From: Kofleriaceae bacterium | Lineage (GTDB): Bacteria > Myxococcota_A > Polyangia > Haliangiales > Haliangiaceae | Length of the DNA: 64,000 nt | Direction of reading: 5' to 3' | NCBI GenBank assembly: GCA_965215005.1 | Contig: CBDCCZ010000003.1 | Span: 96,001-160,000, forward strand | Part shown: piece by piece, positions 54,873 to 61,374 of the stretch | Numbering within the stretch: the stretch's first letter is position 1 | How the letters are laid out: every line of letters begins with the position of its first letter | The notes under the pieces: model-generated | What the model was told of the DNA's origin: nothing | The model's database searches: none | The model's input: only the letters and a program-made list of their open reading frames with translations | Position numbers and translations under genes: made by a program

Positions 54873-57800
54873 CTACCCGAGCGCGCCGGCCGTAAGCCAC
54901 TCGATCGTGGCGCTCATCTCGCCATCGCCGCGCAGTGCCGCGATGGCAGCGGCTTCGATGACGCCGCCGCATTTGCTCGCCGCGCGAGCGGCCTCACCCA
55001 GCACTTGCTGGCAGTCCGGCTCGCGCCTCATCAGCTGCAGCGCTTGGCCCTTGAGCCGCAGCGCGACGGGGTAAAAGAATGAACGTCGCCCAAGCCATTG
55101 AAGCCGGCGCGCGTGCGCATACGCCCGCTCGGCGTGCTTGTCGCTACCGCCCTCGCCATGCAATCCGAGGCCGAGATGCGCTGTAGCCAACAGCTGATGC
55201 CGCGTGGCTACGAAGATCGGTAACCGTGGAAGAACTCGGTCGAACTCGGGCGACCGCATCGCCTCTGCAGCGATTAGCGTGCCGCGATAATCACGACGGG
55301 CCAAGCACACCTCTGCCGCGAGGGTGAGCTGCCACAACCGCGATACTCCGAGCTGCGCCGAAGCATCGGCCGCAAGCTCGATGGAGCGATCCTCCGCTTC
55401 GTCCACCCGGCCGGCGTAAAGAACGGCGCGCGCGTAGAACAAGCTGGCGAGTGAGCGAGTGAATACGTCTGGCAGATCCGCTGCAAGCATGCCGCCGAGC
55501 ACGTCGACGGAGCGGTGAACCTCTCCAGCGTAAAACTCCCCGTGCGCATAATACGTGCGCAGAAACGACGCTTCCCAGGACCGGCTCAACCCGAGCTCAT
55601 TCGAGATGCGTTCACCGCGCGCCGATGCATCTCGCATCGCCCGCCAGTCTCCGCGCACCGTGTGGCCAAGCAGCCGCACCGCCGCGACCACCATCTGCGC
55701 GTAAGGATCGCCGCATCGCTCTGCAATCGCTTCGGCGCGATTGGTCCACGGACTGCGCAACAAGCCGACGCTGGTGACCTCGAGATACGACGACACCATC
55801 GCCCATCCGCACGCCTCGGCGCTGGCATTCCCGCGTCGGCGGGCGTGCAGAATCGAGCGCAGCACGTACTCGAACGCCTCCCGCGGATACGGCGTCGACA
55901 GATAGCTACCGATCACGCGATAGACCTCGGCCATCAGCTCGGCCTCCGTGGCCGCATTCGCGGTAGCGGAGGTAGGCGCGGAACGCGCGGAACGTGCGCG
56001 CCAGAGCAGCTCGAGCGCAGGCCCGAGCGGCGCCCATAGCGAGGCGAGGCGACGACGGCGAAACACGAGCCCGCGCGAGGCGAGTAGCTCTTCCAGAGTG
56101 GCGATGCCGCGGTCGAGCTCGCCGAGCTTGATCTGCGCTTCGGCAGCGCCTAGCAGCCACTGGTCACGCGCGAGCCCTTGCTGCTCGGCAGCCAAATCGC
56201 GGCACAGCGTCGCAGCGCGGCCATAGTCGCCCGCGAGCAACACCAGCCGCGCGCGCCGCTCTGCGGCCACTTGTACCTGCTCCGCTGGCAGCCCCAACTC
56301 CAGCGCTCGATCGTAGAGGGCAGCCGCATCTTCGAAAGCCAGCTGCTGCGCTGCCTGCTCGGCGGCGGCGTTTGCCCACGGCGCGGCGCGAGAAGACTCG
56401 CCTGCGCGAGCCCAGTGTTCGGCGAGCCGCTCGGCAACCCCGGGAACCAGCCGGTCGGCTTCGTAGCTGGTGGCAAACGCACGATGAAGCTCTTGTGCCC
56501 GCTCGGGGCCAAGCTGGCGATACGCCGCTTGCCGCAGGCGGTCATGATAATAATGATAGGCAACACCGCCGGTCGAGGTCGGTGCGATGCGCACGATGCG
56601 CGTCGCCAGAAGGCCGTGCAGGGCCGACAACAGCTTCGCAGGTGCCAATTGCGTGACCCGCTGGAGGCGCTCGTAGGCAACTGAGCCGCCGGCGACCGCC
56701 ACCGCCTGCGCCACCATCCGCTCGTGCTCCTCGAGGAACTCCACCCGAGAGCGCTCGAGGGCGGCGACATCGAGTCGTGAGCGACTCGCCACCGTCTGGT
56801 TCTGGGCCAGCTCACGCGCCATTGATTCCGCGATATATGGGATCCCGCCGCTGAGAAGCACCAGCTGCGAGACGACACCGTCGTCGAGCTCACCGGGGCA
56901 CATCGACCGAATGAGCGCCGCGGCATCGGGCTCCGCCAGCGGCGGCAGGTTGAGGAGCGAGGTCCGAGCGCTGGCGATGGCGCGGGTCAGGAAGGCTTGC
57001 AGAGGCGCTCTGGCCTTGAGGTCCTCATCGCGAAACATCAGGATCACCAGGAGCGGCAGCTCCTGCTGATCGCCGAGCATCGCGAGTAGCTCGAAGCTCG
57101 CCGGATCGGCCCACTGCAGATCATCGACCGCGAGGATGCCGGCACCGCCGCGCAGACGGCGTCGCAGCAGACCGGTGAGGGCACTGAACGCGCGTTCGCG
57201 CTCGGCGCGAGGATCCGTGACGGCGCTGTCGTCGATGACGGCGAGTTCTGCAAACGCGGGAAACACGCGCGCCAGGGCCGCGGCGTGCGGCGGCATGGCA
57301 TCGGTGCGCCAATCGGCTCCGGCATCCGCCGCAAGCTCCTCGGCAACGCGGTCGAATGCGCGATAGGAGATGGTTTCCGAGTCGTAGCAGCGATCGCGAT
57401 ATACGATCGCCTGCGCCGCCGACGTCGATACGTGCAGCTCATCGAGCAGCGCGGTCTTCCCGGCTCCAGAGGGTCCCACGAGAAACATCACGCGGGGGAG
57501 CCGGTCGCTGCGAGCCTTCTCGAGCTCGCCGCGCAGCGCCGCCAGCTCCTCTTGGCGGCCGACGAACTGCGGTCGCCGTTCGCGCCTGGGCTCGCTGAGC
57601 GCATGCCCCAGCGCCACAGAACGCACCGCTTCGGCGGTGGGACGCTCACTCGGATCCTTGCGCAACAGCGCGTCGATGGTTCGAGCCAGATCTTCGGCCA
57701 GCACCGGATTCACCGACCGCACCGCTGGGGCCAGCTCCTCGACGTGAGACGTGACGATTTGATAAAACGTGCCGCCAAACGGCGGCGCGCCAGTGACGAG

Positions 57801-58529
57801 CTCGAATGCCAACACCCCGAGGGCGTAGAGATCCACCGCCGGCGAAACTTCTTGGCCGTGCAGATATTCCGGCGCCATATAAGCGACCGTTCCGGCCATC
57901 GGCGAGGCAGTGCGGCTCTGCCCGCGCACCGGCGTGCAGTCGAAGACGAGCCCAAAATCGAGCAGCTTGACGTGACCATCTGCGGTGACGAGTGCGTTGG
58001 AGGGCTTTACGTCGCGATGCACCTTGCCGTGCTCGTGCAGGTGTGCGAGCCCTAACGCCAGCTGCGCCAAGGCGCTGCGCAGCCGCTCCTCGTTGAGCGA
58101 CAGCGCTCGCGGACGCAGCCAGGAAACCGGCTCCGGGCCCGGACCAGAGATGGTCTCGGCATCGATCGTACTCAGCGTCATCGCTCCCGTGTCGGCGTGC
58201 GCGATGACGCTCTCGGCTTCACCGCGGACCCAGCTCCGCAAGTCACTACCGCGCACCAGCTCCATCGTGAAGAACGCGGTATCGCGGTCGACATAGAGCT
58301 CGTAGAGGTCGACCAAGTTGCGATGGCGCAGCTCAGCAACCGAGCGGAACTCATGCTTGAGCTGCCCCAAGCGGCGCGGATCCGTATGCGCCACGGTCTT
58401 GAGCGCGAGCCTGGCACCGGTGTCGGTGTCAACCGCCTCGTACACCGTTCCCATGCCACCGCGCCCGAGCTCACAGACGATCTCGAAGCGCCCTCGACCC
58501 AGCTCACGTCGCATGAGCGATACCCCCAT
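54873..58529 (-). CDS. Ser/Thr kinase - P-loop ATPase - TPR-like multidomain protein
   Basis: LGRGGMG, VHRDVKPSN, DFG, YMAPE; FVGR..EL, GPSGAGKT, VDDLQWAD; helical repeat C-terminus. Confidence 0.9.
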   Translation of the reverse strand: MGVSLMRRELGRGRFEIVCELGRGGMGTVYEAVDTDTGARLALKTVAHTDPRRLGQLKHEFRSVAELRHRNLVDLYELYVDRDTAFFTMELVRGSDLRSWVRGEAESVIAHADTGAMTLSTIDAETISGPGPEPVSWLRPRALSLNEERLRSALAQLALGLAHLHEHGKVHRDVKPSNALVTADGHVKLLDFGLVFDCTPVRGQSRTASPMAGTVAYMAPEYLHGQEVSPAVDLYALGVLAFELVTGAPPFGGTFYQIVTSHVEELAPAVRSVNPVLAEDLARTIDALLRKDPSERPTAEAVRSVALGHALSEPRRERRPQFVGRQEELAALRGELEKARSDRLPRVMFLVGPSGAGKTALLDELHVSTSAAQAIVYRDRCYDSETISYRAFDRVAEELAADAGADWRTDAMPPHAAALARVFPAFAELAVIDDSAVTDPRAERERAFSALTGLLRRRLRGGAGILAVDDLQWADPASFELLAMLGDQQELPLLVILMFRDEDLKARAPLQAFLTRAIASARTSLLNLPPLAEPDAAALIRSMCPGELDDGVVSQLVLLSGGIPYIAESMARELAQNQTVASRSRLDVAALERSRVEFLEEHERMVAQAVAVAGGSVAYERLQRVTQLAPAKLLSALHGLLATRIVRIAPTSTGGVAYHYYHDRLRQAAYRQLGPERAQELHRAFATSYEADRLVPGVAERLAEHWARAGESSRAAPWANAAAEQAAQQLAFEDAAALYDRALELGLPAEQVQVAAERRARLVLLAGDYGRAATLCRDLAAEQQGLARDQWLLGAAEAQIKLGELDRGIATLEELLASRGLVFRRRRLASLWAPLGPALELLWRARSARSAPTSATANAATEAELMAEVYRVIGSYLSTPYPREAFEYVLRSILHARRRGNASAEACGWAMVSSYLEVTSVGLLRSPWTNRAEAIAERCGDPYAQMVVAAVRLLGHTVRGDWRAMRDASARGERISNELGLSRSWEASFLRTYYAHGEFYAGEVHRSVDVLGGMLAADLPDVFTRSLASLFYARAVLYAGRVDEAEDRSIELAADASAQLGVSRLWQLTLAAEVCLARRDYRGTLIAAEAMRSPEFDRVLPRLPIFVATRHQLLATAHLGLGLHGEGGSDKHAERAYAHARRLQWLGRRSFFYPVALRLKGQALQLMRREPDCQQVLGEAARAASKCGGVIEAAAIAALRGDGEMSATIEWLTAGALG

Positions 58530-58575: not shown

Positions 58576-59301
58576 ATGCCGAACGCCAGCCGCATGCTCT
58601 TCGCTCATGTCGTCGACCGCGACGACGAAGACATCGAGCTCGACGTCGCTGCGCTGCTGGTAGCGGAGTGGGAGTATGAGCGACTCGAGGTTGCTCATTA
58701 CGTCGACCAGCTGGATCGCTTCTCGGAGTCGGTCGAGAAGATTTTGCGCGATCTGGGCAATGTCCGGTTTGGACCCGTGCGAGCCATCAATCGGGTCCTG
58801 TTCCGTGAGCTCGGCTTTCGCGGCAATCAAGACGACTACTACGATCCGCGCAACAGTTTCCTCAACGAGGTAATCGACCGCCGCACAGGGATTCCCATAA
58901 GTCTGTCTATTCTGTACATGGAAGTAGCCCGCCGTGTCGACATCCCCATCGAGGGTGTTGCCTTCCCCGGCCACTTCCTCGTCCGTTATGACGAAGACGA
59001 CGACTCGCTCATCATCGATCCGTTTCGCATGGGTCTCACGATGGACCGCGATGATCTCCAGTCGCTGCTCCGACGAGTGGAGGGACAGGAGGCAACGCTG
59101 TCCCCGGAGCATCTGCAACCGGTCAGCAAGAAGTCGCTACTGATGCGACTCTTGACCAATCTCGCAGCGATCTACAGCAAGCACCGCGACGCGCTCCGCT
59201 CCGTCGAGGTGCTCGAGCGCATGCGCATTCTCGACCCGCAGAACAGCCGCGTGGAACGCGCGCTGAGCCGGCTGCGCGCGCAAGCCATTGAAGTCAACTG
59301 A
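58576..59301 (+). CDS. SirB1/YchA-like transglutaminase-like + TPR protein
   Basis: GF.GN...YYDPRNSFLN.V..RR.GIPISLS, FPGHFL, IDPF, R.L.NL. Confidence 0.9.
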   Translation: MPNASRMLFAHVVDRDDEDIELDVAALLVAEWEYERLEVAHYVDQLDRFSESVEKILRDLGNVRFGPVRAINRVLFRELGFRGNQDDYYDPRNSFLNEVIDRRTGIPISLSILYMEVARRVDIPIEGVAFPGHFLVRYDEDDDSLIIDPFRMGLTMDRDDLQSLLRRVEGQEATLSPEHLQPVSKKSLLMRLLTNLAAIYSKHRDALRSVEVLERMRILDPQNSRVERALSRLRAQAIEVN

Positions 59302-59343: not shown

Positions 59344-59715
59344 TTACTCCAGCTGCAAGCCACAATCGGCGCACGCACCCATGACCAGCGGTGCTGCGTG
59401 GCCACACGCCGGGCACGGCGGCTCGTCGCTTCCGCTTGCAACCGCGGGCGCGGGCGCGGCAGTGCCCTCCGCTGCAACCATAGCGGCCCACTCGGCCTGC
59501 AACAGCCTTGCAACGCGCTCAACATCTGCCTCCTGGACCAGGAGGACGGCTTTGGTGCCTCAGCCCTTGCCGCTGCCGGCAGGCGCCGCGGCCGCGGCGG
59601 CTACATCCGCAGCGAGACAGCGGTCTACGAGCTCTTTGATGTAAGCGAGCGAGCCCTGCACACAGGGAACGGCGCCGGATTCTTCGAGAAGCGCGGCAGC
59701 GGTCTTGGCGTCCAT
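59344..59715 (-). CDS. Candidate selenoprotein (123 aa, UGA at codon 52) with a C-terminal zinc ribbon
   Basis: Single frame: MDAKTAAALLEESGAVPCVQGSLAYIKELVDRCLAADVAAAAAAPAGSGKG-[TGA 59562-59560]-GTKAVLLVQEADVERVARLLQAEWAAMVAAEG...CPACGHAAPLVMGACADCGLQLE-TAA. TACAAT lies 6 nt before the ATG; a hairpin follows the UGA. Confidence 0.75.
59529..59545 (-). promoter_or_regulatory. Putative bacterial SECIS element
   Basis: CCUCCUG-GUC-CAGGAGG perfect 7-bp stem; apical GGUC about 20 nt 3' of the UGA. Confidence 0.65.
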
Positions 59716-59781
59716 CCCGCCATTGTAATGGACTTCGGCAGCAAACGCAGTAGAGTCGCCGACCGACGAGAGTATCTGTTT

Positions 59782-61374
<1,593 letters not shown>

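Follow-up and report, generated by a model that had tools for sequence, protein, structure and literature searches.

The subject of this analysis is a small gene with an in-frame UGA codon in a 64,000-nucleotide (nt) stretch of DNA from a Kofleriaceae bacterium (GTDB lineage Bacteria; Myxococcota_A; Polyangia; Haliangiales; Haliangiaceae; positions 96,001 to 160,000 of contig CBDCCZ010000003.1, assembly GCA_965215005.1), hereafter the window, in the numbering of which all coordinates are given. The gene lies on the minus strand between a sirB1-like gene and prfC, the gene for release factor 3 (RF3). Its frame runs from an ATG at 59715-59713 to a TAA at 59346-59344 and has a single in-frame interruption, a TGA at codon 52 (59562-59560), in the Gly-rich context GSGKG-U-GTK. 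The original prediction, made from the letters alone, took this frame to encode a selenoprotein with a zinc ribbon, and on re-reading, the ends of the frame, the sole TGA and its context, the CPAC-x10-CADC motif (residues 101-118 of the readthrough product) and a TACAAT box 6 nt before the ATG all proved to be correct. With the UGA read as selenocysteine (Sec), the coding sequence (59344..59715, minus strand) comprises 123 codons and the TAA, with the Sec codon at 59560..59562 in the loop G-K-G-U-G-T-K and a hairpin resembling a Sec insertion sequence (SECIS) shortly downstream, at 59529..59545. Homologues, the residue that takes the place of Sec in some of them, the conservation of the hairpin, and the Sec machinery of the genome all support the selenoprotein reading, and we put at roughly 0.9 the probability that this is a real Sec-decoded gene of the protein DG superfamily that automatic annotation has overlooked.

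The readthrough product was searched in six frames of 61 related genomes, and homology extends across both sides of the UGA, as the original prediction had anticipated: 37 of the 61 genomes have full-length matches, 26 with exactly one TGA and 11 with none. In an alignment of 30 loci (A1; 21 with TGA and nine without), conserved columns lie both upstream of the UGA (K27, C33, L34, P39) and downstream of it (G53, L58, D64, W76, E83, G84, and the four Cys of the ribbon), and the TGA column is occupied by Cys in all nine TGA-less sequences. A scan of species-representative genomes yielded 279 relatives, and among the best 80 of these, examined at the Sec column, 56 have TGA and the other 24 have Cys (three of these Cys-forms were read by eye). 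The labels of the 80 are almost all Myxococcota or related (Kofleriaceae, Haliangiales, Myxococcus, Archangium, Pyxidicoccus). Five TGA-forms (L041, L046, L062, L075 and L112) are labelled Proteobacteria, Rickettsiales or Amaricoccus and are nested in the Myxococcota clade of the tree; these are probably mis-binned or mislabelled metagenome contigs, not gene transfers. When genomes are sampled evenly across the phylum, the distribution proves patchy: the gene is present in 24 of 251 (12 TGA-forms, 11 Cys-forms, and one partial match), the 12 TGA-forms being spread over five GTDB families. A tree of 93 unique proteins requires at least four changes between Sec and Cys, of which well-supported branches force at least three, compared with about 25 when the labels are shuffled. 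The Sec-forms fall in the Haliangiales/Kofleriaceae part of the tree and the Cys-forms in Myxococcaceae, Archangiaceae, and other lineages, with three reversions to Cys within the Sec part.

The hairpin is the second line of evidence. The UGA is followed, after 14 nt, by CCUCCUG (59545-59539), GUC (59538-59536), and CAGGAGG (59535-59529), that is, by a perfect 7-bp stem closed by a 3-nt loop and overlapping codons 57-62 (V-L-L-V-Q-E-A). The stem is exactly the one that had been predicted; the apical GGUC that went with it has to be corrected, its first G being the last G of the stem, so that the loop is GUC, or GGUCC when the top pair is open. The apical loop begins 21 nt past the UGA, and the 25-nt hairpin folds with -11.0 kcal/mol. 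In the model of the bacterial SECIS given by a recent review (PMC13188914), the loop has 3-9 nt and the stem 4-16 bp, 16-37 nt separate the UGA from the loop, the minimum free energy is at most -7.5 kcal/mol, and a G is found within the first two nucleotides of the loop, as a rule with G or U next to it; compared by hand, the hairpin of the window, with its 3-nt loop GUC, 7 bp, 21 nt, and -11.0 kcal/mol, is within all the limits given there. It shares with the classical bacterial SECIS (that of Escherichia coli fdhF and the bSECISearch consensus) the location within the coding sequence just 3' of the UGA, the G and then U that open a small apical loop, the 21-nt spacing, and the stability of about -11 kcal/mol, but differs from it in being a very short, perfect 7-bp helix with a loop of only 3-5 nt, with no bulged U or extended lower stem seen in the fold of the window sequence.

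That the hairpin is more than a chance fold follows from comparison across homologues, not from the statistics of the single sequence. From a genus sample of relatives and genomes of named species, 77 TGA-form loci were collected, and in all 77 the hairpin keeps one fixed register relative to the TGA. They reduce to 61 distinct 48-nt rows, which come from related sequences and hence are not independent; in these, 84.8% of the cells pair, compared with 41.4-58.0% after a shift of the 3' partners by 1-3 columns, and two-sided changes occur in four pairs (16 cells), a level reached by none of 500 shuffles. The outer pair (columns 18-34) is C-G in 51 rows, G-C in four, U-A in two, U-G in three, and something else in one; columns 22-30 are C-G in 60 rows and U-A in one (L022), where both exchanges, CUG to UUG and CGG to CGA, are synonymous. 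The top pair (columns 24-28) is G-C in 35 rows, C-G in three, and open in 23, and the 23 rows with the open pair have Glu at that codon and thus a 5-nt loop. Third-codon positions within the stem are invariant or nearly so, and the one in the loop varies. An eighth pair (columns 17-35), when tried, was mostly unpaired. For a control, we turned to the Cys-forms: over 28 of the 33, the same columns pair in 52.2% of the cells (35-47% when shifted), and the residues over the stem vary (LMVRS, LIVGA, LLARE, LEILP), as against L-L-V-(Q/R/E)-E in the TGA-forms. Thus, the Cys-forms have lost both the pairing and the motif, which ties the hairpin, together with the tight protein motif that it encodes, to the TGA; a conserved and partly covarying hairpin confined to the TGA-bearing homologues is the pattern that the selenoprotein reading had called for.

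The genome itself is equipped for Sec insertion, with counterparts of selA, selB, selC, and selD, for which a search had been proposed. In the source assembly (6.2 Mb in 62 contigs, 92.8% complete), we identified a tRNA-Sec (75.1 bits, anticodon tca), SelA, SelD, and the winged-helix domain of SelB, in a 634-residue frame, all above the family cut-offs. Among the related genomes, SelA was found in 24 of the 26 with a TGA-form, nine of the 11 with a Cys-form, and 48 of the 61 overall. A second selenoprotein, namely a formate dehydrogenase with Sec, the SECIS loop of which could be compared, was sought among the molybdopterin-domain matches of the source genome, and none of the four contains a TGA. 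Elsewhere in this genome (locus L126, contig C54, approximately 225.6-228.1 kb), a molybdopterin oxidoreductase similar to YdeP/FdhF appears to be scattered over three reading frames and contains no Sec-type in-frame TGA; either the gene is a pseudogene or the low-depth assembly has frameshift errors there.

The protein had not been recognised among the classical bacterial selenoprotein families, its novelty being left unconfirmed, and on this point the original prediction needs a correction: it is a distant short form of a family already on record. "Hypothetical protein DG" is a new selenoprotein predicted by deep-Sep in two Desulfosediminicola genomes (Xiao and Zhang 2025; PMC12013277), and a 2026 review pairs it with the model NF049953 and the motif GUxG (PMC13188914). 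The NCBIfam model NF049953, "zinc ribbon-containing (seleno)protein DG", has 172 positions and a cut-off of 130 bits. The protein from the window matches its positions 53-171 with 53.2 bits (E = 3.3e-14; 49.5 bits on DNA), and all 30 aligned homologues match it as well, the best with E = 5.5e-20. When 1.84 billion representative proteins were searched with a profile, 513 relatives were recovered at E <= 0.001, and 60 of those listed were scanned against NCBIfam. True DG members account for 22 of the 60, with 156-224 bits, 171-206 residues, and an extra N-terminal zinc ribbon; the other 38 score 48-115 bits and consist of 35 longer proteins, of which those sampled keep the N-terminal ribbon and some have no loop Cys, and three short forms (P0031-P0033, about 125-135 residues, 50-60 bits). 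When the short forms were compared with the 22 members of NF049953 by hhalign, the probability was 99.6% (E = 2.4e-24, 114 columns), and their Sec column aligned to the loop Cys of the DG members (alignment A4). Certain two-ribbon relatives with scores between those of the short forms and the DG cut-off (P0080, P0081, P0094, and similar proteins, 63-115 bits) often have no loop Cys, and the chemistry of the loop is, therefore, not essential to the superfamily as a whole.

Homology to DG, with a homologous Sec position, is thus established. The shared features are the central alpha/beta domain, which is homologous, the C-terminal CPACG...CxxCGL ribbon, the Sec at the same loop column, and the mixture of Sec and Cys forms; the published Desulfosediminicola sequence has the same K-G-U-G context. 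The short forms differ in that they have no N-terminal zinc ribbon (approximately positions 1-50 of the model; there is no C-P-x-C...C-x-x-C), are one residue shorter from Sec to strand 3, come from records mostly labelled Myxococcota or related names, not Thermodesulfobacteriota, and, in most of their Sec-forms, have no Cys cluster in the loop. Since the score falls below the cut-off and the N-terminal ribbon is missing, we class the gene not as a member of NF049953 proper but as a short DG variant from Myxococcota that has a single ribbon. In the literature, we found no paper that links the short Myxococcota form to selenium, although the figures of DG-homologue alignments in PMC12013277 could include a Myxococcota sequence.

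Modelled with AlphaFold2 on the 30-sequence alignment (mean predicted local distance difference test score 88.3), the protein has an N-terminal alpha/beta domain of residues 1-83 (59467..59715, minus strand), composed of a helix (3-13), a strand (16-22), a helix (23-35), a strand (40-43), the Sec loop (44-54), a strand (55-60), and a helix (62-83). The model places UGA-52 inside this one compact domain, on the loop between strands 2 and 3; past the last helix come a less confident linker and the Cys4 zinc ribbon, CPACG-x9-C-x2-CGL (residues 101-118; 59362..59415, minus strand). The four ribbon cysteines (C101, C104, C115, and C118) show no variation among the 30 sequences of A1 or among 29 sequences drawn from the whole superfamily. 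Cys33 (59617..59619, minus strand), in a K/R-C-L motif with which helix 2 ends, is conserved in at least 90% of A1. In one sub-clade (L012, L013, L014, L019, and L021), a Gly/Pro/Cys-rich tail of 15-30 residues extends past the ribbon and contains two to four additional Cys, for example, as C-x3-C or C-x4-C-x4-C.

Comparison with known families provides hints rather than an assignment. Pfam returns only zinc-ribbon families for the readthrough protein, all below their cut-offs, and no match to DUF2007 (PF09413) at E up to 1. The structure 2hfv, which we take to be the DUF2007 representative, aligns with the model over 63 residues with Z 4.9 and a root-mean-square deviation of 4.2, values within the range of common arrangements. 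In an atlas search that started from the Cys homologue P0031, DUF2007 clusters appeared with feature scores of 0.85-0.89 and template modelling (TM) scores of 0.51-0.56, along with Myxococcota clusters of "hypothetical protein" and a cluster of the "(seleno)protein DG family" with a TM score of 0.60, all of these being leads only. What may be alike in DUF2007, the "putative prokaryotic signal transducing protein", is the small alpha/beta arrangement, often with a zinc ribbon after it, and the scores are weak; DUF2007 is not known as a selenoprotein family. From the order of the elements, the Sec loop presumably occupies the place of the T-loop of PII-like folds. A reading of the Gly-rich loop as a Walker A motif was discarded, the order G-x4-G-K-[ST] being absent by eye.

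In the mechanism that we propose for the expression of this gene, the hairpin at 59545-59529, with its apical loop 21 nt past UGA-52, would be bound by SelB in complex with Sec-tRNA(Sec). Codon 52 would then be decoded as Sec instead of causing termination, yielding a 123-residue protein with a predicted alpha-beta-alpha-beta-[Sec loop]-beta-alpha domain followed by the C-terminal Cys4 zinc ribbon. As for function, the Sec on the exposed beta2-beta3 loop could be a redox-active nucleophile, a proposition that we consider evenly poised. The pattern of cysteines around the loop fits it: the Cys-forms appear to have a C-x2-4-C centre there, in place of which the Sec-forms would have a more reactive selenol, conceivably resolved by Cys33, a loop Cys, or an external thiol. 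A second Cys 2-5 residues upstream of the Sec/Cys column is present in 27 of 29 Cys-forms and in four of 64 Sec-forms, a Cys only at 6-10 residues upstream in one of 29 and 42 of 64, respectively, and no Cys within 10 residues in one of 29 and 17 of 64, the protein from the window being among the latter; one Sec-form has its Cys solely at the position adjacent to Sec. The Cys of helix 2 (Cys33 here; a C-L or C-Q motif) is present in 25 of 29 Cys-forms and 61 of 64 Sec-forms, and it is the candidate resolving Cys. The zinc ribbon, most simply, would be a structural zinc site or a module that binds a partner or nucleic acid. As regards function, there are points on the other side as well. The vicinal Cys of a classical CxxU redox motif accompanies Sec in just the four of 64 Sec-forms mentioned. 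Foldseek found nothing in the PDB at E <= 0.001 (best E, 0.14), and kinship to the type III secretion ring motif of PrgK/EscJ, which gave the best VIA-align score (Z 7.4), had to be rejected, the alpha-beta-beta-alpha arrangement being a common one.

The strongest competing view of the function is that the Sec/Cys loop, perhaps together with the zinc ribbon, is a metal-binding site, as in a metallochaperone or metal sensor, and not a redox centre. The C-x2-4-C arrangement of 27 of 29 Cys-forms would suit such a site, as would the C-x3-G-C-C clusters of true DG members and the Gly/Cys-rich tail added to the C-terminus of some homologues. However, with no Cys within 10 residues of Sec in 17 of the 64 Sec-forms, that of the window included, the loop would offer few ligands, and intermediate members of the superfamily have no loop Cys at all; on balance, we consider metal binding unlikely, though worth keeping in mind alongside the redox nucleophile that we favour.

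The neighbourhood of the gene brings in a further, regulatory possibility. The sirB1-like neighbour (58576..59301, plus strand) is a transglutaminase-like gene convergent with the selenoprotein gene (PF13369, Transglut_core2, E = 7.8e-53), and prfC (59788..61374, plus strand; Pfam GTP_EFTU and RF3_C) is divergent from it, the two start codons being 72 nt apart. Among the 80 homologue loci, of which 56 are TGA-forms, the gene is followed immediately by a co-oriented prfC in 29, every one of them a TGA-form (for example, L044, L047, L048, L057, L064, and L100), at a distance that, by arithmetic from the locus coordinates, is mostly tens of bases. The tandem order in many TGA-form loci and the divergent order in the window suggest an ancestral linkage followed by a local inversion. 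The SirB1-like gene also adjoins six Cys-form loci, three in the set of 80 and three in that of 30 (L020, L025, L029, L054, L080, and L109). Given that sirB1 of E. coli is in the prfA-prmC neighbourhood, the UGA-containing gene would be flanked here by two termination-linked neighbours; their recurrent company may be inherited synteny. Other recurrent neighbours, Ser/Thr kinases and unannotated open reading frames (ORFs), are restricted to sub-clades in a neighbourhood clustering filtered by GC3 (third-codon-position G+C), and no functional partner gene emerged from the comparison of the homologue loci. On the far side of the SirB1-like gene in the window, a minus-strand ORF (54873-58529, 1218 residues) appears, by eye, to start like a Ser/Thr protein kinase and to continue as a long stretch rich in repeats.

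The TACAAT box (59722..59727, minus strand) is a -10-like element and a candidate promoter for a leaderless mRNA. Boxes of the form TAnnnT ending 4-10 nt before the start codon are found in 57 of 110 homologue loci, as against 53 of 5500 random positions (1%), an enrichment that makes leaderless transcription probable for the family. According to the original prediction, such a box also precedes many other genes of the window. A consensus scan of the locus for promoters and terminators found no full -35/-10 site and no terminator. Motivated by the recurring company of translation-termination genes, one might imagine that the gene is not just that of an enzyme: a leaderless, UGA-containing ORF ahead of prfC might report on the balance between Sec insertion and termination and so tune RF3 expression, or its product might sense redox state as a PII/DUF2007-like protein, using the Sec loop, in place of the T-loop, to act on the machinery of termination; we regard either version as a long shot.

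Returning to Sec decoding itself, the following observations count against it or limit what can be made of the evidence. Single-sequence folding is unremarkable (z = 0.03 for a 71-nt fold; z = -1.63 for the 25-nt hairpin, with 11 of 200 shuffles as good), three of the seven stem pairs never vary, and, the stem encoding the conserved L-L-V-x-E, part of its conservation could reflect constraint on the protein. SelA was not found in two of the 26 TGA-form genomes (91% and 82% complete), and its presence discriminates weakly, given how widespread SelA is among these genomes. The locus is covered thinly in the assemblies, with depths of 2 and 4.2 in the two runs, and no RNA run is listed among the sequencing runs that contain the locus. 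Two contig assemblies from one sample are identical to the window, with the same codon at UGA-52, an agreement that adds little because both are probably from the source sample.

If UGA-52 were a true stop, the locus would encode a 51-residue peptide and, perhaps, a separate 52-residue zinc-ribbon peptide, with the hairpin serving in regulation or pausing. The only start codon in frame past the UGA, a TTG at 59502, indeed opens such an ORF (59502-59344), and gene callers yield C-terminal fragments of this kind in public data. Yet codons 53-71, between the UGA and the TTG, are conserved as protein (G53, L58, D64), each Cys-form is one uninterrupted protein whose Cys falls precisely on the UGA column, the AlphaFold model sets the UGA within one compact domain, between strands 2 and 3, and the hairpin stays within all the limits of the bacterial SECIS model, so that we give termination here hardly any credence. 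We think no better of readthrough without Sec, whether by near-cognate insertion of Trp or Cys or through genome-wide reassignment of UGA. UGA is leaky in many bacteria; still, the neighbouring genes are complete under translation table 11, the genome has the full Sec machinery, homologues without the TGA invariably have Cys in its place, and a SECIS-type hairpin is kept only in the TGA-forms. That the frame is a product of chance, or a pseudogene with a premature stop or a sequencing error, as the many long spurious frames of high-G+C DNA, the depth of just 2-4, and another gene of the genome that looks frameshifted might suggest, is effectively refuted by the full-length homologues with conservation on both sides of the UGA, the TGA/Cys counts, the same TGA column in 77 homologue loci (61 distinct rows), the hairpin comparison, and the two assemblies that agree at the codon.

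A Sec-decoded gene of the DG superfamily thus has gone largely unseen, and the suspicion that gene callers would split or miss it turned out to be well founded. In public protein sets, the TGA-forms are represented only by C-terminal fragments, the profile search returning many proteins of 48-88 residues that match just the part past the UGA, and those Cys-forms that have an NCBI name (2 of 29 matches) are called "hypothetical protein". The blind spot extends to the nearest curated model, NF049953, which scores the short forms far below its cut-off. Recognition of these genes carries a selenoprotein family that was known from sulfate-reducing Thermodesulfobacteriota into several families of Myxococcota, where its architecture is different, with a single ribbon. 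Within one clade, at least four switches between Sec and Cys, in which the Cys-forms regain a vicinal Cys and lose the hairpin along with the L-L-V-x-E constraint, provide a natural comparison of what Sec buys and how a SECIS constrains the coding sequence, and cultured relatives with Cys-forms, such as Myxococcus and Pyxidicoccus, make the genetics feasible.

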